Positions 10,955 through 32,535 of a stretch of DNA of 39,553 nt are shown here, piece by piece; the stretch's first letter is position 1; each line of letters begins with the position of its first letter. The translations under genes and the position numbers were made by a program. This DNA comes from Candidatus Woesearchaeota archaeon (lineage in GTDB: Archaea; Nanobdellota; Nanobdellia; Woesearchaeales; UBA10200): assembly GCA_018302185.1 (NCBI GenBank), contig JAGVZX010000110.1, forward strand, positions 1 through 39,553, in the 5' to 3' direction. The notes under the pieces were generated by a model, which worked only from the letters and a program-made list of their open reading frames with translations, was not told the origin of the DNA and ran no database searches.

Positions 10955-10978
10955 CTTCTATCTTAACTATTCTTTAAA

Positions 10979-15502: not shown

Positions 15503-15633
15503 TGCAGAAATAGATAAGAGAGGCTATTATTTAAAGTTTATGTTTGTTGTAATACTTATTACTACACTAGTTAATATAGCGACGATAAATCACTCGATAG
15601 AAAGCGACAGGTTATAGCGTATCGGGGGCAAAC

Positions 15634-15777: not shown

Positions 15778-15810
15778 AAATTATTAAATAACCTTCATTT
15801 AACATCATTT

Positions 15811-15954: not shown

Positions 15955-15958
15955 ACAG

Positions 15959-17494
15959 GTGAGGCTATTGATAGTAACTAATAAACAGCATTCTAAGATT
16001 GATGTAGCTAGCATTCTAAAGAAAAAATACTATTTTCAGGGATTTAACGGCACTCCAGGATTGTTGACATTTGGTGCACCTTCTTCCTGCAAATACATGT
16101 ATGAGTATCTGGGCTATGGCTATAGTGTGCTTGTTGATTTCTATGAGAATGACAAAGCATATTACGGCTATGCCTGGGATGATTTGCATAATATAAACGA
16201 CCATCTGATGCAAAATCTGAAAAAGAATAAGGATTACCTAAAAGTTATCTGGCAGAAACACACTTCCATCAACAAAGAGCATTTTAATGTTCTGAAAAAG
16301 CTTGATAAGTTAGAGTTAAATAAAATAGGCAACATAGAGCTGCTTGAGGACTACCATATTCTTGCAGAAGCTCTTAACAAGCTTTTGGGCGTAAGTCACA
16401 TGGTTGAGGGCTTCACTCTCACAAGCGAAGAAAAGATAAGATCACTTATTTTTGATGCAGTAAAAAAAATGGGGAGAGAGAAAGAATACAATCAGCTGAT
16501 TGCAGATCTGACTGCATCTACATTTCCTTCATTCATAGGAGAAGCTCATAATGCAATTGTGCTTGCAGCAGTTGAATATACTAAGCATGGAAAAAAAATA
16601 GCTAAGCTGCTAAAGCAATTGGAAAAAAAATATTACTGGCTTAACAACGGCTATTCATGCACGCATTATCTTGATGCAGATTACTTTATGCATGAGATTA
16701 ATGAGCTGGTAAAGAAAGGCATCACAAAAGAGATGGAGAATTATGCCAAAAATTACCGAAAGATTTTGTATGAGAATAAAAAAAGAAAGCAACAGCTTTT
16801 CAAAGAACTAAAACTAAGCGATGAGCTAATCCAACTTCTGGAAATCAGCGATTTTATGGCAAAACTGCAGGACAACAGGAAGCATGTTACTACAATCACT
16901 CTGAGCTATATTGATAACTTTTTGGCTGAAATAAGCAAGAGATATAATTTAAAGCATGAGCTTGTTCGCTACCTTATCCAAGCAGAAGTAACAGAATTTA
17001 ACCTGAACAATCTTACTGATCAAATGCTTGAAGAAAGAAGAGCAAAGTCAATATTTTTCTATACTTATGAAAGCCAGAAAGAGAAAGAGCCTGAAAAAAG
17101 AGGCATTGTATTTACTGGTAGAAAAGCAGAGCAGATGATAACTCAATTGATGGATGAAGACCATGGCGAGATCCATGAACTCAAAGGAAACTGTGCATCT
17201 CCTGGAAAAGTTACTGCAATAGTTAAAGTCTGCAGAGGAGCAAATGAGATTGCAAAAGTGCAGAGAGGAGATATTTTAGTTGCGTGCATGACACAGCCAG
17301 AGTTTGTTCCTGCAATGAAAAAAGCAGCAGCGATAATCACAGACGAGGGCGGTCTTACCTGCCACGCGGCAATTGTCAGTCGTGAACTTGGGATTCCATG
17401 CCTAATAGGCACAAGAAAAGCAACTAAAGTCTTAAAGGATGGCATGAAGGTTGAAGTTGATGCTGACAATGGGGTTGTTAGGATATTGAGATGA
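15959..17494 (+). CDS. PEP-utiliser swivel (phosphohistidine) domain protein, family copy P1
   Basis: The C-terminus reads GNCASPGKVTAIVKV...GDILVACMTQPEFVPAMKKAAAIITDEGGLTCHAAIVSRELGIPCLIGT...DGMKVEVDADNGVVRIL, which is the PF00391-type mobile domain. The start is GTG. The helical N-domain is shared with P2-P5. Confidence 0.85.
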   Translation: MRLLIVTNKQHSKIDVASILKKKYYFQGFNGTPGLLTFGAPSSCKYMYEYLGYGYSVLVDFYENDKAYYGYAWDDLHNINDHLMQNLKKNKDYLKVIWQKHTSINKEHFNVLKKLDKLELNKIGNIELLEDYHILAEALNKLLGVSHMVEGFTLTSEEKIRSLIFDAVKKMGREKEYNQLIADLTASTFPSFIGEAHNAIVLAAVEYTKHGKKIAKLLKQLEKKYYWLNNGYSCTHYLDADYFMHEINELVKKGITKEMENYAKNYRKILYENKKRKQQLFKELKLSDELIQLLEISDFMAKLQDNRKHVTTITLSYIDNFLAEISKRYNLKHELVRYLIQAEVTEFNLNNLTDQMLEERRAKSIFFYTYESQKEKEPEKRGIVFTGRKAEQMITQLMDEDHGEIHELKGNCASPGKVTAIVKVCRGANEIAKVQRGDILVACMTQPEFVPAMKKAAAIITDEGGLTCHAAIVSRELGIPCLIGTRKATKVLKDGMKVEVDADNGVVRILR

Positions 17495-17544
17495 GATATA
17501 AATGTATTAGATAAACCTAATTATAAACTTACGAGGCTCTTGAA

Positions 17545-19044
17545 ATGAACAAAGAACTGATCCAATCATTAGTGAAAAAGGAGTGGTATATACAGGGCAT
17601 TGCAGCAGTTCCTGTCTTTGTTTTTGCGTGCTCGATCTCTGGTATAAAAGCATGCAAAAAAACTCTTGGTTATGGGTATTCTAAGTTTATCTATGACTTC
17701 CAGAAGGATTATCTTGAATTATACTACAGCAGAGAAGACCTTCAATATATGTGTGATGAGTTCATGAAATGGTACAAGAAAGATAAAAATTACTTGAACT
17801 GGCTTGATGAGAAGAGTAATGAGGAAAAAAAGCCATTCTTTGAGTATATGAAAGAGCACCTTAACAGCCTTTCCAGATTAGATGACAACACGCTTCTGGA
17901 GCATTACAAAAAATTCGCAAACATGTTCTATTTTGCTTTTGGCGCATCTCACTTAGTTGAGGGGATCTCACTTACGACTGATGTTGTGTTCAAGGATCTG
18001 CTGCTGAAATCCCTGCAAAAGCTAAGTAAAGCAGACAAGTTCACTCTCTACTTTACTGAGCTGACACAGCCTACACGAAAGATGTTTTTCCCAGAGTTTA
18101 ATAAGAGCATGTCTGATATGGTTGATTATTATAAAAAACATCAAAAACAAAATAACTACAAAGAACCATCACTCGAAGACAAAAAGCTACAAGCAATGGT
18201 TGATGCCCATGTCAAAAGATTTTTCTGGATAAGATCGCAGTGGGACAAGGCAAGAGAATATACTCAGCAAGATGTAATTGATGAGATCAAGGATGCAGTA
18301 GATAAGAACGAGCAGATAACTGTTACAACTGATGCGCAGCTTATGAAGAATCTTTTGCGTAAAAAGAAATTGTTTAAAGAGCTAAACCTAAACCAAGAAT
18401 TGATCGACTTGGTCGAGATCACTGATTTTGTGACTTATTGGCAGGACCAGAGAAAGATAGTTATCTTATCTGGTGTTTATGCTTTCCAGCAGTTTGTCGA
18501 TGAGATAGCCAAGCGTTTTAATGTTGATTCTCGCGACCTCAAATATCTGTTGGCAGATGAAGTTAATCCAGATGATATTGGCTCCATCAAAAACATCAAC
18601 CTCAGAGAAAGAAGGAAGGCAAGCATATTTATCCATTATAAAGATCAGTTAGAAGTATTTACAGGAAATAGATACAAAGAGATCAAAGCCTTGCTTGTAA
18701 AGCAGCATAAGGAAGATGATGTCAAAGAGCTTAATGGAATGTGCGCTTCATTAGGCTGTGTGACTGGCAGAGTTAAAGTCTGTATAAATGCAGCAGAAAT
18801 CTCTAAAGTTGAAAAAGGAGATATACTTGTCACTTCAATGACAAGGCCAGAATTTGTGCCTGCGATGAAAAAAGCAGCTGCAATTATTACAGACGAAGGT
18901 GGCATCACAAGCCATGCTGCAGTGATAAGTAGGGAGTTAAAGATACCATGCATCATCGGCACGAAGAATGCAACCAAGCGCCTCAAAGACGGAGATTTGG
19001 TTATGGTAAATGCAAATCATGGATTGGTAAGGATTCTGAAGTAA
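17545..19044 (+). CDS. PEP-utiliser swivel domain protein, family copy P2
   Basis: GMCASLGCVTGRVKV...GDILVTSMTRPEFVPAMKKAAAIITDEGGITSHAAVISRELKIPCIIGT...VNANHGLVRILK. It lies in tandem 50 nt after P1. Confidence 0.85.
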   Translation: MNKELIQSLVKKEWYIQGIAAVPVFVFACSISGIKACKKTLGYGYSKFIYDFQKDYLELYYSREDLQYMCDEFMKWYKKDKNYLNWLDEKSNEEKKPFFEYMKEHLNSLSRLDDNTLLEHYKKFANMFYFAFGASHLVEGISLTTDVVFKDLLLKSLQKLSKADKFTLYFTELTQPTRKMFFPEFNKSMSDMVDYYKKHQKQNNYKEPSLEDKKLQAMVDAHVKRFFWIRSQWDKAREYTQQDVIDEIKDAVDKNEQITVTTDAQLMKNLLRKKKLFKELNLNQELIDLVEITDFVTYWQDQRKIVILSGVYAFQQFVDEIAKRFNVDSRDLKYLLADEVNPDDIGSIKNINLRERRKASIFIHYKDQLEVFTGNRYKEIKALLVKQHKEDDVKELNGMCASLGCVTGRVKVCINAAEISKVEKGDILVTSMTRPEFVPAMKKAAAIITDEGGITSHAAVISRELKIPCIIGTKNATKRLKDGDLVMVNANHGLVRILK

Positions 19045-19084
19045 TTATAAAAATTTAAATATCTAATTCCAAGAATAATAAAAA

Positions 19085-21256
19085 CTAATGTGTTAGCTGA
19101 ACATATGATTCGGCAATGACTTTAGCAAGATCTTTCATATCAAACGATGCTTTTCTAAAGTTTACTCCAGTACCTCTTAGCTCTTTCATTGATGCCCTAT
19201 CAATTTGATTTACCCTGATCACTAAAGGAGTAACGCCAAAAGCTGCTGCTTCTTGCACAGCAGTAGCCATGTCAGCCCATGCATATCTTCCTTCATATTG
19301 CTGCTCCATATCCCATTTTTTTCTGTTTTCATCTGCAAGAATTTTTGATGTCGGATCAAATAATCGGTCATCATGCGGAGCGCCATCATTAAGATAAATC
19401 AAAAGCTTTATTTCTTCTGGACGAGATGAAAGCAGATATGTACCATGCCTGATTATTGCGCCATCCCTATTTTTGTACTGAGGCTCCAGCTGATTAAGCC
19501 TTTCACGCAGAGTTTCTCTTCCAAGAGAATCATCAAAACCCTTTAGTTTATAGAAAAAAGTAGTTCTTGATTTAATACCATAACCTTTTGAATGCTTACC
19601 TTCAACTTTGCTTGTGACAGCATAGATAGCACACGGATCATTGCAGACATCAAGTCCTACAGCAAAATACATCGTTGCTTCTTTTAATTTATCTAGCACA
19701 GAATGTTCTGGATCTATCAACTCACCTGTTGAATCGCTGACATCTATCAATAATAATGCTGCTACGCTTCGTTCCTCTCTTCTAGGCTCATAACAAAATA
19801 AAGGTCTGACAGGAGTATCTGCTTTGAGTTTGGCTAAAAATCTTGAATACTCCCTTTTATCCATCCTTCTTCCTGGCTTAGGCATTAACTTTCTTTTTAT
19901 TACGAGCCCTTCTGGACTAAGAGAATCAAATTGCGCTTTTATATTTCTCTCAATAGATTCTTCAGGCTCAGAAAAACCAAATACTGGCTGTTCTGGTTTT
20001 GGGATGTCTTTTTCATGTACTATTACATGCTGCTGCATAAACCTGCCTTGAATATAATTCCATTCATGATAACTAGGATCTCCAACTAAAGAAAGTTTTT
20101 TTCTGGTTGCTAATGCTATAGCTGCTTCTCTTTTATATATTACTCCTTTTTCATCCTTCATACTACGTGGATTAGATACATTATTTAAATTATCAAGAAC
20201 ATCTCGTATATTTCTTTCAACATCAGGCACAGATACATTCTGAGCAGGGTCAAGAATTGGCAGCTTGCTATCTAGCATTAGCTCAACTATCCTAAAATAA
20301 AGATCAACTGCTACTCTAACTGAATCATGGATATCTTTTTCAGATTCGAAAATCTTTCTGCTTATATTGAAGAGATCTTCTACAATCGGTTTAACTGCTT
20401 TTTCCCACTGTTCTAGCACAGCCGATCTTGAAGGATTATATTTTACTATATCTGCAAGAGATTTATGCCTTTCGTCTTCTTTTGACTGATATTTTCTGAA
20501 TTCATTGTCAAAATCCATAGACTGAAATAATAAAGAATATTCAAATCTTCGCATCACAAAATCAAATAAATAGGGTGATTGAAGTGTTGGTCTTGCACTG
20601 CATGATCTTTTTATGATATCTTTAGCTAAACAGTCATAAAAATAAGAAAGATTTCTTGAGCACCAGTCATATGAAGCTGGAAAATCCCTAAAAAAATTAC
20701 CCATTATCCTTCCTCTTTCTATAATCCCTATTAAATCACCCATAAGATTAAAGTGAAGAAAATAAGCTGCAAAATTGTATTTATATTTAATAGGTAATTC
20801 AATTTTAGAGAGCTCTGATTTTATTAAATCAAATTTAGGATATACATCTATCAGACCGGGTTCTGTTCCTTCTAATCCAGATAACAAATACGCTTGACAA
20901 TGATGTACCGGATTATGTTTTCCAAATCTTTCTTTGCCTTCTTTATATGCAGCTTTTACTATATCTGCAAGTGTTTTATTATTAAACCCTTTATTATAAC
21001 GAAACTGGGCTGCATTAAGCGCTGCAAGCGCAACATAAGTCATCTTATTATCTTCCCTATCCTCAAACACATTTATTTGCTCAGGAAAATTTGCTATAAT
21101 TGCTTTATCACGATCACGCGCATCACCAATTCCAAGTCCAGTATTGCCGTTGAAAAGAATTTCAATAGGTACTGTTGCTATTGCCCTCATATAAGCTCTA
21201 AGCAAACTATTTACTTCATCTATCCTAACTATTGGAGATTCAACAGCCATGCTCAT
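19085..21256 (-). CDS. NorD/CbbO/CobT-type von Willebrand factor A protein
   Basis: The C-terminal vWA has an intact MIDAS DVSDS (19730-19744). RDGAIIRHG, LLIYLNDGAPHD and YEGRYAWADMATAVQEAAAFG are family hallmarks. The YHEWNY motif lies upstream of the vWA. It is the last gene of the operon, 17 nt after the AAA+ gene. Confidence 0.8.
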   Translation of the reverse strand: MSMAVESPIVRIDEVNSLLRAYMRAIATVPIEILFNGNTGLGIGDARDRDKAIIANFPEQINVFEDREDNKMTYVALAALNAAQFRYNKGFNNKTLADIVKAAYKEGKERFGKHNPVHHCQAYLLSGLEGTEPGLIDVYPKFDLIKSELSKIELPIKYKYNFAAYFLHFNLMGDLIGIIERGRIMGNFFRDFPASYDWCSRNLSYFYDCLAKDIIKRSCSARPTLQSPYLFDFVMRRFEYSLLFQSMDFDNEFRKYQSKEDERHKSLADIVKYNPSRSAVLEQWEKAVKPIVEDLFNISRKIFESEKDIHDSVRVAVDLYFRIVELMLDSKLPILDPAQNVSVPDVERNIRDVLDNLNNVSNPRSMKDEKGVIYKREAAIALATRKKLSLVGDPSYHEWNYIQGRFMQQHVIVHEKDIPKPEQPVFGFSEPEESIERNIKAQFDSLSPEGLVIKRKLMPKPGRRMDKREYSRFLAKLKADTPVRPLFCYEPRREERSVAALLLIDVSDSTGELIDPEHSVLDKLKEATMYFAVGLDVCNDPCAIYAVTSKVEGKHSKGYGIKSRTTFFYKLKGFDDSLGRETLRERLNQLEPQYKNRDGAIIRHGTYLLSSRPEEIKLLIYLNDGAPHDDRLFDPTSKILADENRKKWDMEQQYEGRYAWADMATAVQEAAAFGVTPLVIRVNQIDRASMKELRGTGVNFRKASFDMKDLAKVIAESYVQLTH

Positions 21257-21273
21257 TTATCTCATCCCCTAAA

Positions 21274-22086
21274 TCATCCCCTAACATTTGTTTTTATTAA
21301 TTTATCTACAGCTTCAATTACAGTCTGATCATGCGATAGAACAACACTAATACATGCATGACAAGCTTCATAAGAGGGAGTACCTGAAACGATTTGCTGC
21401 GCTGCTTTAATTAAAGAATGATATCCAATCGATTCTTTTAGGCTTCCAGCATATTCTTGTGACCTATGCAGCTCATCTATAGTTTTAGCAAGCATATCCA
21501 ACTGCCTTGCCAATTTTAAGTCAATACCGCTTTCATTAACAATAATATCTACGCCTTGCTCACCCCTTACATAACTGAATTCTATGCCGACAAATCTTTG
21601 CGCTAAGCTTGGCTTTGGAAATCTTCTTGCTGCTTTTTGATAAGCTGCTCCTGGATTCATAGAGACAATAAACATAAAATCTTTGCCAGGCCTGATCACT
21701 TCGCCTATCTCTCCAACATGAAGTTCCCTTCTCCAATCTGCTAATGTATGGCATAACGGCAAAACATCTTCATTCATCTCTAATATCTCTTCTAAATGAG
21801 TATATGCTTGAATTTTTGCACCGATATACAATGGCCCTGGAATAAAAACACTTTCATATCCAGGAATTGTAATGCATGGCATTCCGTGCTGATATGCCAT
21901 AAAATCAACAAATCTAGATTTACCAGAGCCTGTTGGCCCTAACAGCATTACTGACTGTCCATTTTTCTTAGCATTCTCAAATATCTGCACTTCATTGCCA
22001 ACTGGATGATAAAATGGTTTTTTCTGTACTTTAAATTGCTCAACATATTTTGAGATATCTTTTTCATCAAATTCAATTTTTATCAT
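21274..22086 (-). CDS. CbbQ/NorQ/NirQ-type (MoxR-class) AAA+ ATPase
   Basis: PFYHPVGNEVQIFENAKKNGQSVMLLGPTGSGKSRFVDFMA carries Walker A at 21916-21939. SMNPG (sensor 1 context), LAQRF and the 270-aa length match the family. Walker B reads THLEE (21787-21798). Confidence 0.85.
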   Translation of the reverse strand: MIKIEFDEKDISKYVEQFKVQKKPFYHPVGNEVQIFENAKKNGQSVMLLGPTGSGKSRFVDFMAYQHGMPCITIPGYESVFIPGPLYIGAKIQAYTHLEEILEMNEDVLPLCHTLADWRRELHVGEIGEVIRPGKDFMFIVSMNPGAAYQKAARRFPKPSLAQRFVGIEFSYVRGEQGVDIIVNESGIDLKLARQLDMLAKTIDELHRSQEYAGSLKESIGYHSLIKAAQQIVSGTPSYEACHACISVVLSHDQTVIEAVDKLIKTNVRG

Positions 22087-22966
22087 TTGCGTTCACCATC
22101 TCATTCGCAACATCTTCGATTAGCAATGATTTAGCAACTTGCTGGACATAGAATTGGTCTGCACGGCCTTCTCTTGTAGTTAAGATTTTTTCAAGACCTA
22201 GCTTCATAGCTTTTTCAGCAGTCTCTTGTTGTTCAGCTCTCTTCTCACTAGCGCGCCTTCTTTCTTTCTTCTCTTGTTCAGGAGATAACTTAAAAAGCGC
22301 ATAAGTCTGATTAACAGACTCTTCCAGATGTATTCTTGGAATTTGCTCTTCAACAACAACAGCAACAATGCCTGGCCTTGGCAAGCCTGTCAACTTATCA
22401 TGAGGGACCTTTACCTCTAATCCAGAATGAATATATTCAAATTGATTATAGCTTGTTCCAGTAGGCTTTTTATCATAGATCACAATTCTCAATAGGTAGC
22501 CTATCTTAATTTCTTCTTTAGGCATTTCTTTTGTCTTGTCATCAAGAGGAAAAGTTATCGGCTCCTGTACTCCTGCAACTATACGTGCTCTAGATACATA
22601 ATCATCAACTTTATCTCTACCGTATATATGGCAAGCCTGGCTTATTGCAACTCTTGCATTATTAAATTTAGGATGATTTGGGTCTGCAGTATTATCTAGC
22701 AATACCTGGATCTGAGCAACTTTGTATAAGATAACTTCTTCATGTGAATCATATAATTCATCTGGGCTTCTTTCATCAAAATTATCAAGCTGACCAGAAT
22801 TTGGCGGCAAAATTCTTGAACCTGATTCAGTTAAATATCTTTTTTTTGCATCAGCTAATTCCTCTAACTTAAAGTTAATGCTGTAACTGGCTTCTGCTAT
22901 ATTCATTTTTTCTGTTTTAGGTTTTTCTTTCATTCTCTTCACCAATCCTATTTTTAAAAATTTCAC
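22073..22966 (-). CDS. Orphan protein (297 aa) in the AAA+/vWA operon
   Basis: The long ORF overlaps the AAA+ start by 14 nt. The track start is a GTG at 22966, with ATG alternatives at 22933 and 22906. It has a charged C-terminal helix (EQEKKERRRASEKRAEQQETAEKAMK). No family recognised. Confidence 0.7.
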   Translation of the reverse strand: MKFLKIGLVKRMKEKPKTEKMNIAEASYSINFKLEELADAKKRYLTESGSRILPPNSGQLDNFDERSPDELYDSHEEVILYKVAQIQVLLDNTADPNHPKFNNARVAISQACHIYGRDKVDDYVSRARIVAGVQEPITFPLDDKTKEMPKEEIKIGYLLRIVIYDKKPTGTSYNQFEYIHSGLEVKVPHDKLTGLPRPGIVAVVVEEQIPRIHLEESVNQTYALFKLSPEQEKKERRRASEKRAEQQETAEKAMKLGLEKILTTREGRADQFYVQQVAKSLLIEDVANEMVNANDKN

Positions 22967-22981
22967 CTCGTTAACATAATT

Positions 22982-24262
22982 TTAAGATTTCATTGTATTT
23001 TCAAGCTGAACTCTTCGTCTTCTTGCCAACTGAAACAAATAAGATGTAAATCTCTCTGCTGCAACAGCATCATGAGTTATAGCTGAGAAATGAGAATATC
23101 TGTGTTCGACTTCCTTGAGTGGCATCTGCACCAATAGATTATATGCTGTCCTGTAAGCTAGCCTTGCTCCATATTGAATGGCAGGATCATCATATTCTCC
23201 TTCAAGAGAATCCTCTCTAATCGGCAAGTACTCAGGCTGCTTTCTGCAGATATTCTTGGCATAGCTTTCAAAAAGATCAACAAACTTCAGGCTGATTGCC
23301 AGGCACATTCCGTTTTCTTTTTTGTTGTCTAGATCTTTTCTTAGGGCAATCCTTAGTTCATCAGGCGTTATAGGAAGATGCGGATCTGCAAAATGGATTA
23401 TTTTTTTTATTAGCTGTGCGTCCAAAGTTCCTCTTGTTGCTTTCAGCCATTTACTGCCTATTCTTTCACCTAATTCACTAATATATCCTAAAACATTATA
23501 GGTTGAATACGCTTTTTTTAATATCGGCAGGAAAATGCTTTCAGCATCTTCTGTATAGAGCCTTTGTTCGCGCTCAAGCCTCTTAAACTGCTGCAGGTAA
23601 TACTTCTCCTCATCTACCATCGCAGGTCTGCACTCATCATCCTCGCAAAATAATCTTGGGAATATTGCAGATGCATTGCCAGCGTTAACATAAGATCCGC
23701 TATCTTCTTTATCCTCCTCACTCAGGCACTCATTAAGTTTTTGTACAAGAAAGATATCAAATCCTATAGCTGTTCTAGAGCAGTCTAATCTGCTGCTTAA
23801 CTCTCTAACAAGATTGTCATTTTCTTTATCCTCTTCTTCACGCTCTTTCTGCCTATACTCTACTGCAAGAGTGACAAGGTCATCAATGCTATGCACTCCT
23901 ATTCTCGTTAATGGATTATAATCAAGAGGCTCAATATTGCGAATAGGCACTCCTTTCTCATAAATCAGCTGATTGACAAACCATATTGATGCTGCGTGCT
24001 CAGCAAGCATATCATTAACAACATTGTCATTAAGATGGGCTTTTAGCTTTTCATTAACATATTCGATCAGTTCAGTGTACTGCAATCTTTGATAGGCATG
24101 CTCTGCAGTGTGCAATCTCTTTTTAATCTCCATGTACCTAGCAAACCTTCTTGCCTGTACTGGATTTTCCCTAGCTAACTTCTCCAAAAATTCTTCGCTT
24201 CTTTTATTAGGTGCAAAAATTTCCATCTTACAGTACCCTTCCCTACATATGCCTATAGCCAT
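22982..24262 (-). CDS. Orphan protein (426 aa), first gene of the AAA+/vWA operon
   Basis: The long ORF is divergent from the Lrp regulator. It has an acidic central linker (REEEDKENDN, SEEDKEDSGS). No family recognised. Confidence 0.7.
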   Translation of the reverse strand: MAIGICREGYCKMEIFAPNKRSEEFLEKLARENPVQARRFARYMEIKKRLHTAEHAYQRLQYTELIEYVNEKLKAHLNDNVVNDMLAEHAASIWFVNQLIYEKGVPIRNIEPLDYNPLTRIGVHSIDDLVTLAVEYRQKEREEEDKENDNLVRELSSRLDCSRTAIGFDIFLVQKLNECLSEEDKEDSGSYVNAGNASAIFPRLFCEDDECRPAMVDEEKYYLQQFKRLEREQRLYTEDAESIFLPILKKAYSTYNVLGYISELGERIGSKWLKATRGTLDAQLIKKIIHFADPHLPITPDELRIALRKDLDNKKENGMCLAISLKFVDLFESYAKNICRKQPEYLPIREDSLEGEYDDPAIQYGARLAYRTAYNLLVQMPLKEVEHRYSHFSAITHDAVAAERFTSYLFQLARRRRVQLENTMKS

Positions 24263-24325
24263 ACGCCTTAACAGTAGATAGAATATTTAGAATTAATTAG
24301 TAATTTTTCTAAAAAACCCGTAAAA

Positions 24326-24335
24326 TTTATAAATA
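24326..24335 (+). promoter_or_regulatory. TATA-box-like element for the tandem-Lrp gene
   Basis: tttataaata lies 21-30 nt upstream of the ATG at 24356. Confidence 0.45.
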
Positions 24336-24355
24336 AACCTAGTTTATTATGCACT

Positions 24356-25474
24356 ATGGGTGAAAAAAATAAAGAATTGATAGATTCAGTAAGATCACCA
24401 GGCCAGATAATTGCGCCTAAGCAGCCTAAAACTGTCAAATTAGACATTATAGACAGGAGAATAATCTACGTGTTATTGGTAAATTCGCGGCTTAGCGCAA
24501 CAAAGATCGCTAAGCTTCTTGGCATCCCAAAAGAAAAAGTGATGTACAGGATAAATAGGCTTGTTGAAGAAAAAGTGATTGTAGAGTTTTATACAGCTAT
24601 TAACACAACAAGGCTTGGATATGATCTTTTTATGCTCAATATTAGCTTAAAAAACACAAGCCAGCAGGAATTAAAGAACTTAGTTGTTGAAATGCAGAAG
24701 ATGCACTATGTTAATTGGGTTATGACTTCTTTTGGAAGCTGGGATCTCATGACAATGATCCAGGCAAAAGGGCTAGGGCATCTGGACAAAATATTAGATG
24801 AAGTATTCACTTGCATAGGAAGCAAATTAAGGGATTATAGTATCTTCTCGATTGTAGATTTCCAGCACACAACCCCGCGCTATCTTACGCTTGACATCAA
24901 AATGCCTCAAATAAAACTTATCGGGAAAAGAGATTTTTCGTATTTTAAGGAGCTAGAAGAAAGAAATGCCAAAGAGGCAAGCCAAAAGATAAGCCTTGAT
25001 AACATAGATGTTGAGCTGTTGAATTCAATTGCATCTAACTCCAGAAAATCATTAAAAGAGATCGGAGAAGAAATTGGAATATCAAGTGATGCAGCTAATT
25101 ACAGGCTTAGAAAATTAATAATGCAAGATCTCATAACAGGATTCAAGGTGCGCCTAAATCATTATTTATTCGGCTATCAGTTTCAGTTCGTGTTCGTAAA
25201 AATCCCTTACATGTCTGATGATAAAAAAAAGCAATTTGTTTATTTCTGTAAAAACCATCATCTAATAAATGCAGTGTTCAAGCTCATAGGCCAGTGGAAC
25301 TTTGCATTTGAGGTTTTCAGCAAGGATGTAATGGAGCTAAAGATGTTTGAAGCAGAGCTAACTGAACTCTTTGGCGACATAATCCAGAACATAACGCTGT
25401 CCTTGGAGTTCAACCAGTACAAGTTTACTTATCTTGGAGAGGGAATTTATACTGACTTAAAAAAGAGTGTCTAG
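24356..25474 (+). CDS. Tandem (double) Lrp/AsnC-family transcriptional regulator
   Basis: Two HTH_AsnC-like units are present: IDRRIIYVLLVNSRLSATKIAKLLGIPKEKVMYRINRLVEEKVI and IDVELLNSIASNSRKSLKEIGEEIGISSDAANYRLRKLIMQDLI. Each is followed by a RAM-like segment. Confidence 0.8.
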   Translation: MGEKNKELIDSVRSPGQIIAPKQPKTVKLDIIDRRIIYVLLVNSRLSATKIAKLLGIPKEKVMYRINRLVEEKVIVEFYTAINTTRLGYDLFMLNISLKNTSQQELKNLVVEMQKMHYVNWVMTSFGSWDLMTMIQAKGLGHLDKILDEVFTCIGSKLRDYSIFSIVDFQHTTPRYLTLDIKMPQIKLIGKRDFSYFKELEERNAKEASQKISLDNIDVELLNSIASNSRKSLKEIGEEIGISSDAANYRLRKLIMQDLITGFKVRLNHYLFGYQFQFVFVKIPYMSDDKKKQFVYFCKNHHLINAVFKLIGQWNFAFEVFSKDVMELKMFEAELTELFGDIIQNITLSLEFNQYKFTYLGEGIYTDLKKSV

Positions 25475-25558
25475 CATATTAGCTTTTATCTATTTATGTT
25501 CGTCAAAATTTGGCAGTTGCTGAAACTTTTGTCGTTATATCTAAACAAATCTTTTTAT

Positions 25559-28459
25559 CTATTTGTTCCCAAATCTAGTATCAACTACTCTAGTCAAGTC
25601 AATGCCTTCTCTTTTGCGCTCTTCAATGTATTTTTTTACATCTATCTTGTAGGCTGTCCTGACTCCACTTAATGGTCCAACTCCCATGTCAAACACTGCT
25701 TTCTCAATGCCCTCATCTAGCTCATCATGTGGAGAATTAACTCCGGTATATCTGATGCTGCTATCAAACCTAGGCTTTGCAGTCTGGATAGACCAGTATT
25801 GCTCTCCAGCTCCAAACTGCTCTTGGACCAGCTCATTGTCCCCTTCAATCTGCTCAAACACAAAATCACCATGTGTCATTGAGGTATTTGCCTTATTTGT
25901 TAGCAGCTTTTCTAACAATTCTGTCTTGAATTTTCTTGGGGCATTTCCTCTGCCTCCCTGGTATCTAACAAGTATATGCTCAGCTTTATCATATCCTTCA
26001 TCGCCATTATAAATTATTCTACCATCTTTGTGCTTAACAGGCATTCCATTCTCATCCCTTACTCTCAGGTCAATATCATCTATCATCAAATATTCTGCAT
26101 TTACTTGGTGAGCACTTTTCACTAATGTATCAAGTACATACCTAAATGTGCCTTTTTCACCAAGTGCAGCCATAAGCGCATGATTTGCCTCATAAGGGCT
26201 TATTGCAAGCACTGCATTTTTGCCTTCTGACCTGCCTAACTTTAATATTGAAAATCCCATCGGCGAATCTAATCCTTGTATAAAATGCTCAAGGTATAAC
26301 CCAGATGGATTGTATATGCTCTTAAAGGTTATTCCCTGTTTTTCTCCGCCTAAACTTGCGCAGCACATCATAAAGCTGCTGCTGTGAAAATCTTGGACAA
26401 CTGCACGATGCCAAGCCCTGGTATAAACGCTTCCTCCTACAAGCGCGCCATTAAATCTTAATTGGGTCTCTAAAAGCTCTAGTTTAGTGGCTAATTCAAC
26501 TATTGGTACATCTAACTTGCTCTTGTTTTGGGCCCATCTCAGATTTTCAACTATGGTGCAGTATGCTTTTAATTCTTCAACAAGATCAAAGGCTTTCTCT
26601 ATGCCTAATGTCTCAGCACTGTATCTGCTTATCCTCTCTTTTACTACCTTTCCAACATTAATCGGCTTTCCAATGTCCTTTGCAGCTCTAGCTACTCTAG
26701 CATCTTCATCAGTTACTAAATTTCCAATTCCGCCTGTTTCTTGAAAATGTTGAATTCTAGAGTTATGTATCTCAAGTTCAAGCTGCTTTCTGCCTTCATC
26801 AGATTCCAAGAGAGTCTCATCTATCGACATCAAGACCTTTCCAATAGCCTGGCCCCTATAAAGAGCATCTTTTGTCTCATCGCCTAAAATTGGCGCAGCT
26901 CCAGGAGCTTTAGGAGGCATGCTCACAGGCTTTAGCAAGTCAAATAATGCATTATATTTCTCTCCTCTAATGTCAGCAAGGATATCATTTAATGTTGTTA
27001 TCCAGGATACAGCATCACCATTGCTTCTTGTGTTAATGTCATATGTTGATTGGTTAGCTAGCAACAGTTGTGTATTAAATCCTAATCTGCTTATATTTGA
27101 CATAAGCTCTTGCGCTTTCTGAATATGCACAGGTGTCTTTTCTTGGCCAATACTTGGTGGTTCAAGGTAAGAGCGAAAAGTTCCATAGTCAAAAGCAATT
27201 CCTAAAATCCTGTTTAGCCCAGAAGAGTTTCTTTGTGCAACAGGAATCTCTTGCATCTCGCTAAGAGTCCGAAACATGCCTATAGGCGAATACCCTGCGC
27301 CAATAAGGATATTTAGGATTGCAGGATTCAATGGCTTAAGGCGTGCGCTTCCGCACTGGTCCGCTAGATAAGCCAGCTTATCATACAACAGCCAATGTAA
27401 TCCTTTCTTAGGGTTATCAATAATATTACCTAATATGATCTCAGACAATGGAACATTTTTTCTAAGCTCCTGCTTAACTAACAAAGCTCCAACATGCACC
27501 CAATCTAGTTGAGAATATATGTTGCGCTTAGAAGATGGCAGCTCCATAACTCTACAAACATAGTCAAAAAATACTCTTGTATTTGCAGGAGATGCCTGCA
27601 GCTCATACACTGCTTCTATGATATCTTTTAATTGGGCTTCTACTTTCTGGTCTCCTTTTAATTTCTTAGCTTGTCTTCTATCTTCTGCAGCTTGATCAAA
27701 CATGTTAAGAATAACTTCGGCTGGCACTTCTATCCCTGTAGCTTGTCTTAAACTCGTTTCATAAGTTGGAATTGCAGCAGCGTCAAAATGCCTAAACGGG
27801 TCTCTGACCATATTCCTATTTAATAATCCACGTGACTCTTTGGCAAATTCTTCATACTTAAATAAAGGTTCTAATTTTGCTAGAAGTAAGTATTGGTAAA
27901 AACTTTGATTTAAAATATCTCTAAGGTCTTTTATCTGCTTTACTTTCTGGAAGTCAACTGCTGTTCTTAAGATAGCCTCACCTCTAAGCTGGATTGCTGT
28001 TTCTTCATCTGCGCCAGAGCTTGTTATTGCTCTGTGGATTCCAGACAACTCATCAAATTCCCTACTTTGGTTTTGTCCAAAATACTTAGCAGCCTCTTCC
28101 CATTCACCATCTCGCACTTCTAAATCAGATATAGGGATTAAGCCTGCTTTAATGTAATCACCTACTATCTCTTTAAAAAAATCATAATGCTCATACTCCA
28201 TTTTATCAACATCTGTCTCTAAAAGCAAAGTTACTAGAGCTGGCTTATCTTCGCTAGCAACTACTCTTAAATCTAAATAAGTGCCTGAATCTAAAACAGT
28301 TTCTTGCGTATGGCCATCTTCATTACTAACAGTAATAACTGCACCGCTAGAAAATTGGCCTGATCTCTTCCCACCAAGAGAAAAGTCACGAAATACTTTT
28401 CTAAGAGTTTCCTCTAGATTAAACCCTTGCTCAGCTTTAAAATGTGCAAATAATACCAT
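25559..28459 (-). CDS. Orphan large protein (966 aa)
   Basis: An uninterrupted 2.9-kb ORF whose antisense ORFs are all short. A TATA-like box sits about 30 nt upstream of its ATG. No P-loop, TM segment or family motif recognised. Confidence 0.8.
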   Translation of the reverse strand: MVLFAHFKAEQGFNLEETLRKVFRDFSLGGKRSGQFSSGAVITVSNEDGHTQETVLDSGTYLDLRVVASEDKPALVTLLLETDVDKMEYEHYDFFKEIVGDYIKAGLIPISDLEVRDGEWEEAAKYFGQNQSREFDELSGIHRAITSSGADEETAIQLRGEAILRTAVDFQKVKQIKDLRDILNQSFYQYLLLAKLEPLFKYEEFAKESRGLLNRNMVRDPFRHFDAAAIPTYETSLRQATGIEVPAEVILNMFDQAAEDRRQAKKLKGDQKVEAQLKDIIEAVYELQASPANTRVFFDYVCRVMELPSSKRNIYSQLDWVHVGALLVKQELRKNVPLSEIILGNIIDNPKKGLHWLLYDKLAYLADQCGSARLKPLNPAILNILIGAGYSPIGMFRTLSEMQEIPVAQRNSSGLNRILGIAFDYGTFRSYLEPPSIGQEKTPVHIQKAQELMSNISRLGFNTQLLLANQSTYDINTRSNGDAVSWITTLNDILADIRGEKYNALFDLLKPVSMPPKAPGAAPILGDETKDALYRGQAIGKVLMSIDETLLESDEGRKQLELEIHNSRIQHFQETGGIGNLVTDEDARVARAAKDIGKPINVGKVVKERISRYSAETLGIEKAFDLVEELKAYCTIVENLRWAQNKSKLDVPIVELATKLELLETQLRFNGALVGGSVYTRAWHRAVVQDFHSSSFMMCCASLGGEKQGITFKSIYNPSGLYLEHFIQGLDSPMGFSILKLGRSEGKNAVLAISPYEANHALMAALGEKGTFRYVLDTLVKSAHQVNAEYLMIDDIDLRVRDENGMPVKHKDGRIIYNGDEGYDKAEHILVRYQGGRGNAPRKFKTELLEKLLTNKANTSMTHGDFVFEQIEGDNELVQEQFGAGEQYWSIQTAKPRFDSSIRYTGVNSPHDELDEGIEKAVFDMGVGPLSGVRTAYKIDVKKYIEERKREGIDLTRVVDTRFGNK

Positions 28460-28485
28460 TTTATCCTCAAAAAAAACCTCTGTCG

Positions 28486-28493
28486 TATTTAAA
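28486..28493 (-). promoter_or_regulatory. TATA-box-like element for the 966-aa gene
   Basis: tatttaaa on the plus strand (tttaaata on the coding strand) lies 27-34 nt upstream of the ATG at 28459. Confidence 0.4.
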
Positions 28494-28727
28494 TTTTCCT
28501 ATATTTTACTATCCTTAAGTAATAACTTATTTAACACCAATTTTTTCAGAAACTAAACACCTTATCTAGGAATATTTTATGAATAAGAGCTAATATTATT
28601 AGTGTTATTTATATCTAACTTCTTATTTTTATAAAAAAGACGTAAAAATATAATAAATAATATGGTTTTTTTATAAATAAATAGGTAAAAAATAGAATAT
28701 AAGAAAAGCAGAAAACTCAAGAAAAGG

Positions 28728-28822
28728 TGTATCATCAGCACAAAGATCCTCACCAAAGTGCTTAAAGACGGAGATTTGTCATGGTAAATGCAAATCATGG
28801 CATTGTGAAGATATTGAAGTAA
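28728..28822 (+). pseudogene. Relic 3' end of a PEP-utiliser swivel domain gene (closest to P2)
   Basis: It reads CIISTKILTKVLKDGDL, then has a 1-nt deletion, then MVNANHGIVKILK and a stop. The corresponding P2 sequence at 18949-19044 is CIIGTKNATKRLKDGDLVMVNANHGLVRILK and a stop. A core of about 38 nt is almost identical. No upstream coding sequence remains, only an AT-rich tract. Confidence 0.8.
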
Positions 28823-28844
28823 TAATATTATTCTCTGAGAATAA

Positions 28845-29174
28845 CTAATTATTTACAACTATCACTTTTTTCTTTGTGGCACTTACCATCGCTTGCCTAA
28901 TCAAAGTTGCTTCCAGCTCTAAAATTTTCTTAACAACAGGGCTTTCTGCATTTAATGTGTAAAGCCTTGTCTTGCCAAACCTTCTTGTTTCTCTTACTAA
29001 TCCGTTTTTTTCCAATTGCTCCCAATAATTAAATACAGATGCTCTGGAGATTTCAGCGCCTTTTTCTATATCGGTTTTTGTAAAATCTAATCCTTTATTC
29101 TCTACAAGAAAATCTATGATTTTAAATAAGGGCATTTCTCCGGTTAATTGCAATAATAATGATTTGTCTTTCAT
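28845..29174 (-). CDS. Winged-helix DNA-binding protein (paralog of 32550-32894)
   Basis: LFKIIDFLVENKGLDFTKTDIEKGAEISRASVFNYWEQLEKNGLVRETRRFGKTRLYTLN has an HTH-plus-wing pattern. I prefer the ATG at 29174. A TATA-like gatttatatac lies about 30 nt upstream. Confidence 0.7.
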   Translation of the reverse strand: MKDKSLLLQLTGEMPLFKIIDFLVENKGLDFTKTDIEKGAEISRASVFNYWEQLEKNGLVRETRRFGKTRLYTLNAESPVVKKILELEATLIRQAMVSATKKKVIVVNN

Positions 29175-29285
29175 ACATTGAGAAAATATAGAAAAGTATA
29201 TAAATCTTACGGTCAAAGTACATCTATATAGACTTTAGAAAATTTAACTTTTTGAGGATTGTTAAGAAGAGAGGATGTTTAGGCA

Positions 29286-29552
29286 ATGTGGACAGATGAT
29301 GAGATTAAAGGCAAAATATTGCATAAGTTAACTCGTTTTGGGAAATTTGATGCTAGCCATACTGCTATTGAGCATCTGCAAAAGGGATTTCCTAAAGATA
29401 TGGTCGGTAGAGTTAAAGATTTAATAAGAGAATTAAAGAAAGAAAATATACTATTTATCAAGCATACTAGTTATGGTGAGCAAGTTTCAATAAATCTAGA
29501 TGTAATAGATAAAGTTATGTTTTATATTGATGTTTTTTTAAAGAAGCCATAG
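29286..29552 (+). CDS. Small conserved hypothetical protein (88 aa; paralog of 32999-33268)
   Basis: It shares the pattern G..H(T).....HL.KG.P......V.....EL.K..IL..K.T.GEQ.S(L/I)N with the 33-kb copy. It is divergent from the wHTH gene. Confidence 0.6.
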   Translation: MWTDDEIKGKILHKLTRFGKFDASHTAIEHLQKGFPKDMVGRVKDLIRELKKENILFIKHTSYGEQVSINLDVIDKVMFYIDVFLKKP

Positions 29553-29617
29553 TTACATTATATTTTGATGAAGGTGAGACAATTACTTACGTCGAATATA
29601 TCCGCGAATACATCTCT

Positions 29618-31051
29618 GTGCATATTGGATGGATGATCTGCGATGGGATGAGAAAGTACGACAGAGAATTGATAGGTAGACCTTTCACAAGAACATTATA
29701 TTCTGCAGAGCCTAAAAATAACTTTTCCTTATGGTGCTGGTGGCAGGATGATCTTACTAAGATGGGAAAATATCTTGTTGATAATTCAAGAAATAATGAT
29801 TGGCTTTCTAGTCATGTTGCTCTACATAAGAAAGTTGCAGGAGAGGCACAGGCAATAGCTGCAAAAATAAAGCAGCTAAATCTTTTAGAGTTGTCTGACA
29901 ACCAGCTTTCTTTCCTGTATGCTGACTTGATGATAAAAGCAGAACGCTTCAACGCTCTTTCCATGGAGATAGATGCTTTGGACTTGGTGCTTGAAGAAGA
30001 ATTAAAGAAAGCCATCTCATCTACGTTTGCTGCAAAAAGAGAGCAGAATGAAGCATATACGATAATAACAACGCCATCTGAGCTTAGCGCTCCTAAAAAA
30101 GAAGAGCTTATGTTCTACAGGCTTGCACTTACTCTAAAAGAGACAAAAAAGTATGATGATAAATTAATCAACAGCATACTCTCAGATTTCTGGTGGACAG
30201 AGCTTAATTGGCGCGCAGGCGATGGAAAAACTTTGCAGACAATAAAAAAGGGAATTGATAATATCCTTAAAGAGGCAAAAGACATACCCAAACATATCAG
30301 AAAGCTGGAAAATTATTCTGATGAGATAGTTGGATTAAAAAAGAAATATCTCAAAAATCCAGAGCTTAATGTTCTGAATAATATCTTTGAAGAATATGCT
30401 CTTCTGCATGAGCTCAGAAAAGAGACACAGATGAAGGCAACTTTTAGCCTTTATCTTATTTTTGAGGAAATCTCAAAACGCTTTGGCATTTCAGTAAATG
30501 ATCTTGAAGTATATTCTCCAGATGAATTAATATTGCTATTGGAGAAAGAAAGAAAAATATCAGACGAAGAGATTGCAAATAGATTGCAATGCTCAACTCT
30601 GTTTATCAATGAGAATGGTTGTGTTGGTAATAAGAATGATCATGACAATAACAGCGTGTTGTTTAAGTCAGGTGAAGATGCAATCAAACTAAAAGCATCT
30701 GAGCAGAGCAAAGAAAGTGATGCAATAAGGGATTTCTCTGGATTGCCTGCTTCTTTGGGAAAAGCAGTCGGCAGAGTGAAGATTGCTTTAAGTGCAGCAG
30801 AAGCACTAAAGAAGATCGAGAAGGGCGATATTCTAGTAACTGGAATGACAATGCCTGACTTTGTTCCAGCGATGAAAAAAGCTGCAGCAATCATCACAAA
30901 CGAAGGTGGCGCTACTTGCCATGCTGCAATAATCTCTAGAGAGTTTAATATTCCATGTATTGTCGGCACTAAGATTGCAACTAAAATTCTGAAAGATGGG
31001 ATGATGGTGGAAGTGAATGCCAATCATGGAGTGGTTAAGATAATAAAATGA
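29618..31051 (+). CDS. PEP-utiliser swivel domain protein, family copy P3
   Basis: GLPASLGKAVGRVKI...GDILVTGMTMPDFVPAMKKAAAIITNEGGATCHAAIISREFNIPCIVGT...VNANHGVVKIIK. The start is GTG. The N-terminus is shorter than in P1, P2 and P4. Confidence 0.8.
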   Translation: MHIGWMICDGMRKYDRELIGRPFTRTLYSAEPKNNFSLWCWWQDDLTKMGKYLVDNSRNNDWLSSHVALHKKVAGEAQAIAAKIKQLNLLELSDNQLSFLYADLMIKAERFNALSMEIDALDLVLEEELKKAISSTFAAKREQNEAYTIITTPSELSAPKKEELMFYRLALTLKETKKYDDKLINSILSDFWWTELNWRAGDGKTLQTIKKGIDNILKEAKDIPKHIRKLENYSDEIVGLKKKYLKNPELNVLNNIFEEYALLHELRKETQMKATFSLYLIFEEISKRFGISVNDLEVYSPDELILLLEKERKISDEEIANRLQCSTLFINENGCVGNKNDHDNNSVLFKSGEDAIKLKASEQSKESDAIRDFSGLPASLGKAVGRVKIALSAAEALKKIEKGDILVTGMTMPDFVPAMKKAAAIITNEGGATCHAAIISREFNIPCIVGTKIATKILKDGMMVEVNANHGVVKIIK

Positions 31052-32535
31052 GCACAAACAACCTAAAAAAACTGATCCAGTCAAAAGAATGGTACTATCA
31101 AGGCGCAGAAGCCAGGCCTTTGTACATAAATATTCCGCTCAGGTCTTCAGTTGACAGCGAGGATCCTGGAAAAAAAGACAAGTATTCTCTGATAATCCTG
31201 CATTTCAGCAATGATTTCTGCGACATATATTATGATAAGTTTGGCATGAAGAGAATAACAGATGGCATCTTGTTGCAGCAGGAAAAAGATAACAAGACAA
31301 TTGATAATCTCTATGGTTCATGCATCAAGGTGATGGATAACTTTATCGGAAATGAAATGAAGTTCATGTCAGTAGATCCTAAAAAGCTGTCAGACAAAGC
31401 TCTCGTATCTAAATTAAATGAAGTATGCACTGCAGCAAAGCATGTTTGGGATCATGTGCTGTTCATTGATGCATTTGATATAATAAGCGATAAAATCATA
31501 AGTTCATCTTTTGACAGCTATAATAATAGCCATAATTTTGCAGGCAGCAAGATCACGAATAAGGAAATAGAGATACTCACTCTTCCTGATGAGCTTGCAT
31601 TCACGCAGCGAGAAAGATTATCTTTGCTTAAGATCGCAGCAGCTGCAAAAGAAGGCAAAAATATTGAAAAGGCTATTGCAGAACATCAGCAGCAGTTTTT
31701 CTGGTATAAGAGCAATTACTCTGTCATTGAGATTCTCGACGAGAGTTATTTCATGCAAAAGCTTGATGCAGTGTTAAAGAATGAATCTGCTGAGCAGATC
31801 AAAAAAGATATCATGTCGTTTGAATCATATGAGAAAAGAATAAAGCAGCAGAAAGAGGATATCTCTAAGAAACACAATCTAAACAGCAGCCTGAAAGAGA
31901 CCATCTATTTTTTTACCAGGCTGACTCTGCTCCGTGACCATAGGAAAGAATGGGTGCTAAAGTCGCATGTCCTGATCAAGCATCTTGCAGCTGAGATATC
32001 AAAGCGCGCAAAAATACCTCTCCATGAGCTTGAATACCTATCTTACTGGGAGATCGAGAGCATTGCTCAATTAAAGAAGATGAAAAATCTGAATGAAAGG
32101 ATTAAAGATTCTGCCTGGGTTGCAGATGAGAGTTATGGATATGCAGGGCATTTTGGGAAAGAAGCTGTGCAGATAAATGGCTTTCTGCAGAAAAGGATAG
32201 TCACAGAAATAAATGCCTTGCAGGGCGTAGCTGCGTCATCTGGCTATGCAAAAGGAAATGTTAAGATAATTAATCGGGTGCAGGAATTCTCAAAGATGCA
32301 GAAAGGCGATATATTAGTATCTTCAAACACAAGGCCAGAGTATGTGCCTATAATGAAATTAGCTGCAGCAATAATCACAGACGAAGGAGGCATCACTTGC
32401 CATGCTGCAATTGTCTCTAGAGAATTAAAGATACCTTGCATTGTAGGAACACAGGCAGCGACTAAAGTCCTGAAAGATGGCATGGTAGTTGAGGTAGATG
32501 CTGAGAAGGGCGTTGTAAAGATAGTTAAAGAATAA
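31048..32535 (+). CDS. PEP-utiliser swivel domain protein, family copy P4
   Basis: GVAASSGYAKGNVKI...GDILVSSNTRPEYVPIMKLAAAIITDEGGITCHAAIVSRELKIPCIVGT...VDAEKGVVKIVKE. It has an ATGA start/stop overlap with P3. Confidence 0.85.
   Translation: MSTNNLKKLIQSKEWYYQGAEARPLYINIPLRSSVDSEDPGKKDKYSLIILHFSNDFCDIYYDKFGMKRITDGILLQQEKDNKTIDNLYGSCIKVMDNFIGNEMKFMSVDPKKLSDKALVSKLNEVCTAAKHVWDHVLFIDAFDIISDKIISSSFDSYNNSHNFAGSKITNKEIEILTLPDELAFTQRERLSLLKIAAAAKEGKNIEKAIAEHQQQFFWYKSNYSVIEILDESYFMQKLDAVLKNESAEQIKKDIMSFESYEKRIKQQKEDISKKHNLNSSLKETIYFFTRLTLLRDHRKEWVLKSHVLIKHLAAEISKRAKIPLHELEYLSYWEIESIAQLKKMKNLNERIKDSAWVADESYGYAGHFGKEAVQINGFLQKRIVTEINALQGVAASSGYAKGNVKIINRVQEFSKMQKGDILVSSNTRPEYVPIMKLAAAIITDEGGITCHAAIVSRELKIPCIVGTQAATKVLKDGMVVEVDAEKGVVKIVKE

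Follow-up and report, generated by a model that had tools for sequence, protein, structure and literature searches.

What does a NorQ/CbbQ-type remodelling machine do in an archaeon where no recognisable client enzyme is encoded beside it? This question is raised by a contig of 39,553 nucleotides (nt) from a Candidatus Woesearchaeota archaeon (JAGVZX010000110.1, assembly GCA_018302185.1; the whole contig is called the window below), which carries an AAA+ ATPase gene and a gene for a protein with a type A domain of von Willebrand factor (vWA) within a block of six genes. Pairs of the NorQ/CbbQ type are understood only for known client enzymes, namely the nitric oxide reductase that depends on cytochrome c (cNOR) and Rubisco, whereas the candidate partner here belongs to a new protein family. 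An earlier note, made from the sequence of the window alone, had taken all six genes as one system. We find instead that the conserved unit is formed by the pair and one neighbour, orf297, and we judge the chances to be about even that these three genes are the functional core of a NorQD-like remodeller, carried on an integrated island, for which an orf297-family protein serves as the target or third component. The six genes are the following.

19085-21256, minus strand: vWA protein of 723 residues, a NorD/CbbO-type adaptor with a putative N-terminal domain and linker, followed by a C-terminal vWA domain that bears an adhesion site dependent on metal ions (MIDAS) and a predicted finger.
21274-22086, minus strand: AAA+ ATPase of 270 residues, a MoxR protein of the CbbQ/NorQ type; a deletion allele, with the junction at about 21847-21856.
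22073-22966, minus strand: orf297, 297 residues, the sole orphan conserved with the AAA+/vWA pair (family A2).
22982-24262, minus strand: orf426, 426 residues, all-alpha in its model; a small separate family.
24356-25474, plus strand: tandem Lrp/AsnC regulator with two AsnC-type helix-turn-helix (HTH) units and an AsnC_trans_reg domain.
25559-28459, minus strand: orf966, 966 residues, a soluble orphan.

The minus-strand operon runs in the order orf426, orf297, ATPase gene and vWA gene, with a 14-nt overlap between orf297 and the ATPase gene and gaps of 15 and 17 nt elsewhere. The Lrp/AsnC gene is divergent from this operon, and orf966 is convergent to the Lrp gene. The six open reading frames, their strands and coordinates, the overlap, the two AsnC-type HTH units of the regulator and every protein motif that the earlier note quoted are present in the sequence and its translations just as it had given them. 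The NCBI annotation (locus tags J4206_062xx) begins orf426 at Met13, which yields a protein of 414 residues. Transmembrane segments are absent from the module proteins, all of which are soluble. The G+C content of the contig is about 36%, and promoter and terminator scans, which rely on bacterial models that are inapplicable to archaea, remained at chance level.

The assignment of the two central proteins to the NorQ/CbbQ and NorD/CbbO kinds holds up under profile and structure-database searches. The ATPase matches the Pfam families CbbQ_C (E 1.4e-10) and AAA_5 (E 3.8e-08), and among PDB sequences it matches CbbQ (6l1q, 1.7e-35; 5c3c, 1.6e-32) and NorQ (9qh4, 9.6e-29; 9qhd, 2.3e-28), the best match being the Rubisco activase CbbQ 6l1q. 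Its Walker A motif reads GPTGSGKS, its Walker B motif reads HLEE where NorQ has LDE, and residues N144 (in SMNPG) and R164 (in QRF), to which their positions assign the putative roles of sensor 1 and arginine finger, are invariant. Judged by its sequence, the 270-residue protein is a genuine CbbQ/NorQ homologue.

Residues 390-630 of the vWA protein match the solved NorD chain 9qhd_G (4.8e-19, improving to 3.6e-29 with a four-sequence family profile). Among the four aligned family members there is no variation in the MIDAS residues D505, S507, S509, T548 and D624 or, at the C-terminus, in A715, Y718 and Q720, and residues 442-484 or thereabouts, which are strongly conserved, align to the NorD finger segment. 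In the NorQD structure determined by cryo-electron microscopy, it is the finger and the C-terminus of NorD that contact the ATPase ring (PMC13036017). The N-terminal part shows a short motif match to NorD residues 95-125 that is non-significant alone, and both the length of the protein and the order of its parts agree with NorD. The vWA domain lies at the C-terminal end with nothing fused after it, and it also gives a weak, sub-threshold CobT_C match (E 0.053). With the vWA protein as query, a word-indexed protein search retrieved nothing but the query, and a scan of metagenomes with the vWA profile gave no match. By these alignments the 723-residue protein is NorD-like, and the AAA+/vWA pair is of the genuine NorQ/CbbQ plus NorD/CbbO kind.

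Which of the neighbouring genes belong with this pair can be judged from related loci. Homologues of the ATPase with 48-54% identity are encoded on three independent contigs (L001, L004 and L007), and the vWA profile, used in a pattern scan that covered 185,579 species genomes, recovered L007 a second time and brought in a fourth, L008, from a Woesearchaeota metagenome-assembled genome (MAG). In all five loci, counting the window, a full-length vWA homologue directly follows the ATPase gene, and an orf297 homologue lies one or two genes from the pair. L001 and the window have this homologue upstream of the pair and on the pair's own strand; in L004, L007 and L008 it is located downstream, on the other strand. 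This adjacency is kept although the flanking genes differ completely between loci, and only the ATPase, vWA and orf297 families are common to all of them. We searched IMG/VR viral contigs and found no related locus. Four of the five known loci are DPANN-like and one, L007, is labelled Methanosarcinales. An apparent deletion within orf297 in a further contig, L014, proved to be a scaffold gap of Ns.

In each of the four other loci the orf297 homologue adjoins a member of a second small family, which we call A1. The two families share a PRPxxIVV strand motif, and comparison of their profiles yields a weak match (E 8e-4, probability 25%); for these reasons they are probably distant paralogues. 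There is no A1 member in the window, where orf426 occupies that slot; profile-profile comparison detects no homology of orf426 to either A1 or the orf297 family. The Lrp regulator and orf966 likewise have no counterpart in L001, L004, L007 or L008. Because these two genes lack counterparts and orf426 is unrelated to A1 and orf297, the conserved unit is orf297, the ATPase and the vWA protein (with A1 elsewhere), and not six genes. The earlier note had placed the client among the three orphans and proposed asking whether they co-travel with the ATPase. One of them, orf297, does so in five of five loci, and for this reason it is the best candidate partner of the pair; orf966 and orf426 do not, and the orf426 family occurs also without the pair.

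The components of the module diverge at different rates. Pairwise identity across loci is 42-54% for the ATPase, 31-34% for the full-length vWA protein, 23-31% for the orf297 family and 22-41% for A1. Between L007 (5728-7303) and L008 (12333-13923), identity reaches 76% in A1 and 54% in orf297, against 44% in the ATPase and 33% in the vWA protein, and this discordance suggests that the A1-orf297 cassette has been exchanged independently of the ATPase and vWA genes. L007, which together with L009 (CAYJTR010000008.1) is labelled ‘uncultured Methanosarcinales archaeon’, has a G+C content of 39% and a module closest to that of the Woesearchaeota locus L008; the contig may be mis-binned or laterally transferred.

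The earlier note had found no recognisable client in the window, and the same is true of the four related loci. In none of the five loci does a gene for Rubisco, COX1/NorB or CobN/ChlH lie within a distance of about 10 kb, and neither COX1 nor a cytochrome c gene was found in the window, L001, L004, L007 or L008. The nearest bacterial relatives of the ATPase (35% identity in a word-indexed search) reside in norC-norB-norQ-norD clusters, next to the genes for their client, a place that orf297 and A1 take in the archaeal loci.

NorQ and NorD are a metal-insertion chaperone of cNOR that acts in FeB insertion (PDB 9qh4, 9qhd; PMC13036017). The archaeal pair resembles them in the CbbQ_C and AAA_5 domains of its ATPase, in the approximate size of the adaptor and the order of its parts (putative N-terminal domain, linker, then vWA domain), in the MIDAS (DxSxS..T..D), in the alignable finger region and conserved C-terminus, and in having the two genes adjacent, the ATPase gene before the vWA gene. 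It differs in that NorB and NorC are absent, the partners are all soluble and the conserved neighbour is the orf297 family; the Walker B motif has EE, the homologues do not conserve the Arg of the GRxLL motif, the insert that bears this motif in NorQ is missing altogether from the window allele, and the host is an archaeon that carries the genes on a mobile island. CbbQ and CbbO (PDB 6l1q, 5c3c) provide the best ATPase match in the PDB and the same pairing of a MoxR AAA+ protein with a large vWA adaptor, but there is no Rubisco gene in the five loci and sister strains lack the module.

If the analogy with the solved NorQD complex holds, the ATPase would form a hexamer whose pore is entered by the vWA finger, held there by the helix-2 inserts, while the C-terminus of the vWA protein would dock on the ATPase ring. 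The MIDAS could then capture an acidic residue of the target protein, and ATP-driven rotation would stretch the adaptor linker so that the target is remodelled. The target or obligate third component would most likely be an orf297-family protein, joined by A1 in other genomes. On this reading the target is not Rubisco, NorB or CobN. The homologies, conserved motifs and co-occurrence are shown by the data, as are the insertion and the deletion allele described below, whereas complex formation, the client role of orf297 and the functional effect of the deletion are inferred.

In the AlphaFold2 model of orf297 (mean predicted local distance difference test score, pLDDT, 67.6), residues 23-130 form a bundle of helices and residues 159-212 a sheet of four strands, and the C-terminal helices are long. 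Its conserved acidic residues include E76, which is invariant. The three orphans are as unrecognisable as the earlier note had said. Neither orf297, orf426 nor orf966 has a significant match in Pfam, NCBIfam, PADLOC, PHROGs or PDB sequences, the last having been searched with family profiles for orf297 and orf426 and with a single sequence for orf966. The top Foldseek match of orf297, the Raf1 chain 6kkm_F, has a template modelling score of 0.13 and is noise.

Several observations weigh against a dedicated orf297-directed remodeller. Orf297 and A1 are the fastest-evolving components of the module, and conserved metabolic clients such as RbcL and NorB behave in the opposite way. Not one Cys or His is invariant across the orf297 family, which argues against a metal-centre client and gives no indication of a NorQD-like role in metal insertion. 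The models of orf297 and orf426 come from shallow alignments (of 3 and 9 sequences) and have modest confidence, and Foldseek searches with them against the PDB and BFVD returned nothing with E below 0.2. The Walker B motif has EE in four of the five archaeal ATPases (the window protein and P0003-P0005), and L008 shares DE with bacterial NorQ. The proposed link between orf297 and the pair is a genomic association across five loci, the gene for the true client may lie in another part of the genome, and among the island proteins no integrase or recombinase family was matched in Pfam, NCBIfam or PHROGs.

That the six genes nevertheless form a physical insertion is evident from the sequences that flank them, which involve a target gene (PEPb) and two attachment-site (att)-like copies of its 3′ end.

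17545-19044, plus strand: PEPb, 499 residues, the target gene, with a C-terminal phosphohistidine swivel domain of the phosphoenolpyruvate (PEP)-utilizers family (Pfam PF00391, 1.8e-27).
18949-19044, plus strand: attL-like copy, the current 3′ end of PEPb, with a 38-nt core at about 18985-19022.
28728-28822, plus strand: attR-like copy, a frameshifted remnant of the last 32 or so PEPb codons, with the core at about 28764-28800.

An imperfect second copy of the terminal 96 nt of PEPb lies 9778 nt downstream. Similarity to the family profile at the attR-like copy begins at about 28706 (the last 38 or so codons) and covers positions 468-505 of the PEP family profile, with a frameshift; the remnant is 87.5% identical to the 3′ end of PEPb in sister strains. 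Those strains are represented by contigs L016-L019 (four contigs in two distinct versions, from four assemblies of the same groundwater metagenomes), which are collinear with positions 10943-19044 of the window at about 89% nucleotide identity, exactly to the PEPb stop codon. Beyond it they carry a 145-residue gene, a nucleotidyltransferase gene and then the orthologue of the next PEPb-like paralogue of the window, and none of the six island genes is present at this site in any of the four contigs.

Since the block is absent from the sister strains and is flanked by a duplicated PEPb 3′ end, it is a real insertion, a strain-specific integrated island of about 9.7 kb, and the earlier note's word ‘island’ was apt. 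The two copies also look like reciprocal chimeras. In the left arm, attL is 82% and attR 71% identical to the sister sequence (59% to each other); across the 38-nt core these values are 97%, 95% and 97%; and in the right, coding arm attL is 64% and attR 91% identical to the sister sequence (68% to each other). Such a pattern is expected of recombination between a site borne by the element and the 3′ end of a host gene. The window contains no tRNA and no Rfam family, and the target of the island is therefore not a tRNA gene. Woesearchaeota offer few concrete footprints of integrative elements, and this att-like duplication, at the 3′ end of a gene that codes for a protein, is one of them. In content the island is a mosaic, with the conserved module beside other cargo.

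The site 3′ of PEPb appears as a hotspot of variable cargo when the sister contigs (L016 11501-12836, and likewise L017-L019) are set against window positions 19045-29585. The 145-residue and nucleotidyltransferase genes of the sister strains may be a toxin-antitoxin pair. In the window, the island is followed by two small genes (28845-29216 and 29286-29552), one with an HTH.

PEPb is one of at least five plus-strand paralogues of about 480-510 residues (15959-17494, 17545-19044, 29618-31051, 31048-32535 and 38196-39553), each composed of an unrecognised N-terminal region of about 400 residues and a C-terminal PEP-utilizers swivel domain with the histidine motif GGxTxHAA. None has an ATP-grasp or PEP/pyruvate-binding domain. 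The island sits inside this array, and the sister strains have a similar but rearranged array. In L001 the gene directly after the vWA gene (13152-14705) encodes a 517-residue protein with a C-terminal Janus/Ocnus domain (phosphohistidine phosphatase family), and an upstream gene (1901-4264) encodes a 787-residue protein with an APH-like kinase match. A phosphohistidine theme may be shared between L001 and the surroundings of the window island, and the N-terminal regions of the PEP-utilizer paralogues show no homology to the 517-residue protein.

One feature of the island bears directly on the proposed mechanism. The 270-residue open reading frame is as the earlier note had described it, but the protein is 17 residues shorter than all its homologues, with a gap between GYESV and FIPGPL that aligns to the helix-2 insert of NorQ with its GRxLL motif. 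An independent ENA contig of 796 nt (L015) is 100% identical on both sides of the gap and carries 51 additional nt (681-731) that encode DAGVVLGATMATGGESV and are bounded by the 10-nt direct repeat TGAAAGTGTT. The intact allele of 287 residues (P0048), otherwise identical, is on record for two further contigs, of which one measures 15.6 kb. A contig of that length, probably this very one, also has entries for proteins that share 90% identity or more with orf966, orf426 and PEPb. Two ATPase alleles, an intact one of 287 residues and a deleted one of 270, coexist in the population. The window allele is best described as a precise, in-frame, slippage-type deletion of 51 nt between the 10-nt repeats, and an artefact of the MAG consensus is less likely.

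In NorQ the helix-2 insert (GRxLL/IxxxxT motif) grips the NorD finger, and CbbQ mutagenesis indicates that the insert matters for activase function (both PMC13036017, which cites the CbbQ work). The helix-2 hairpin is present in P0048 and the homologues, but without the GRxLL Arg. By analogy, the deletion probably weakens the coupling of ATPase and adaptor, and because the ATPase lacks its helix-2 insert the machine is probably impaired in the sequenced genotype. A natural allele of this sort would be a ready-made control for the ‘finger-in-pore’ model.

The rapid divergence of orf297 and A1 also suits a different kind of machine, a ternary conflict or defence system in which a rapidly diversifying third component (orf297, together with A1 or orf426) would recognise an invader or act on it, gated by the MoxR-vWA pair. 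Such a role has been proposed for the VMAP and iSTAND systems of multicellular bacteria, which similarly combine a chaperone/co-chaperone pair with a fast-diverging, conserved third protein and have a patchy distribution (PMC7159879). The archaeal module fits that scheme in having a conserved third protein with helical and alpha/beta parts and third components that outpace the ATPase in evolution, with an A1-A2 cassette discordant between L007 and L008. Its fourth slot is swapped (A1 elsewhere, orf426 in the window), it is rare, patchy and located on a mobile island, and its neighbours include AbiEii (L004), MazE/PemK (L001), and HEPN/nucleotidyltransferase and Fic genes (window). However, the module proteins have no PADLOC match, and Pfam and PADLOC reveal no VMAP-C, iSTAND or effector domain in them. 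The vWA domain is C-terminal with no fused effector, and the host is a DPANN archaeon rather than a multicellular bacterium. The bacterial MoxR-vWA conflict systems are not known to belong to the NorQ/CbbQ clade, of which the archaeal pair is a member. On balance we consider a conflict system rather unlikely. A role in the morphogenesis of an element or virus seems to us improbable. Here the pair would assemble a structural protein (orf297 or A1) of a DPANN virus or plasmid still to be recognised, in the manner of the tail chaperones p618/p892 of Acidianus two-tailed virus (ATV). Adjacent genes for a MoxR AAA+ protein and a vWA-MIDAS protein of about 700 residues are indeed carried by archaeal viruses (ATV p618/p892 and the haloviruses HVTV-1 and Hardycor1; PMC7911831), the island is integrated between att-like repeats, and the orf297 model has long C-terminal helices. 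Against this, the island carries no capsid, terminase, integrase or other viral hallmark gene, the orphans have no PHROGs match, IMG/VR holds no such locus, and there is no significant BFVD match and no meaningful match to a phage and virus collection. In tblastn searches of the phage collection, orf966 had no match, the vWA protein one short match of 16% coverage and the ATPase one weak match of 25% identity.

The pair might instead serve a client of known type that is encoded elsewhere in the genome, such as a DPANN form III Rubisco or a metalloenzyme, with orf297 acting only as an adaptor or being an unrelated neighbour. Some DPANN genomes do encode a form III-like Rubisco, CbbQ is the best PDB match of the ATPase, and the clients of MoxR proteins are not always adjacent, as in RavA-ViaA. 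Yet Rubisco, COX1/NorB and CobN are missing within about 10 kb in all five loci, the sister strains without the module would leave a core-metabolism client unserved, and the adjacency of orf297 is kept amid wholly different flanks; we regard this explanation as distinctly unlikely. Least credible is a six-gene system resembling the class I chelatases (CobS/CobT/CobN, BchI/BchD/BchH), a layout that the earlier note had seen in the combination of an AAA+ protein, a vWA protein and a very large protein, with orf966 or orf426 as the large client subunit. Beyond this layout and the sub-threshold CobT_C match on the vWA protein, the analogy fails because orf966 and orf426 carry no CobN signal (no CobN-Mg_chel match at E up to 0.1, and no CobN/ChlH or other match) and the ATPase matches CbbQ_C and AAA_5 but not Mg_chelatase. 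In addition, the large proteins are not conserved with the pair, both being absent from the four related loci, and the orf426 family occurs without the pair in contig L011; a chelatase-like system is therefore highly improbable.

We return to a NorQD-like remodeller centred on orf297. The kind of pair is already known; new are the orf297 partner family, carriage on an island, the natural allele that lacks the insert and the restriction, so far, to five loci. A more far-reaching version, which we put forward only tentatively, is an undescribed, DPANN-specific ternary machine of the NorQ/NorD type that is spread on integrative islands. Its dedicated substrates would be novel, fast-evolving alpha/beta paralogues (orf297 and A1), the machine would act as a conflict system or as an assembly chaperone for a DPANN mobile element still to be recognised, and the population would hold it in intact and switched-off alleles. 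In either form the family, found in genome-reduced DPANN archaea, offers a compact four-gene system in which to ask what other uses this remodelling mechanism has. With a family so rare, known from five loci, its impact is that of a lead, not a result.

The remaining genes of the island are best read as its other cargo. For orf426, ten remote relatives (E 1.7e-9 to 6e-4) emerged from a full HMMER scan that covered 1.84 billion representatives; the family has three conserved motifs, and the all-alpha AlphaFold2 model has a pLDDT of 66.7. The archaeal contig L011 carries two orf426 paralogues (2865-4073 and 9986-11047) and no AAA+/vWA pair, and orf426 is probably island cargo or a locus-specific accessory. 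The L011 paralogues are surrounded by genes for translation (aEF-2, aRF1, S7) and by one for a DEAD-box helicase, and a TrmB homologue resides near them, as one also does in the window, L001 and L007. The 90%-identity cluster of orf966 is confined to this population, and orf966 has no homology to A1. The Lrp regulator may control the operon locally.

Other neighbours of the module vary between loci. Two of the five loci (L004 436-1218 and L008 7444-8148) have a gene of the PAC2 family (proteasome assembly chaperone 2) upstream of the ATPase gene, and in L004 AbiEii toxin-antitoxin-like genes stand between the two. In the window, the seryl-tRNA synthetase appears split between 10979-11737 (Seryl_tRNA_N) and 11873-12262 (C-terminal core), where the sister strains have one intact gene of 427 residues; the split is a frameshift, a pseudogene or an assembly error. 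The sister strains also have an additional 290-residue gene upstream of the synthetase that is missing in the window. The window flanks (201-1318, 13779-14792 and 35755-36768) encode a HEPN and nucleotidyltransferase pair, a Cdc6/Orc1-like ATPase beside a TrmB regulator, and a Fic-domain protein, and these accessory or defence-type genes fit a variable genomic region.

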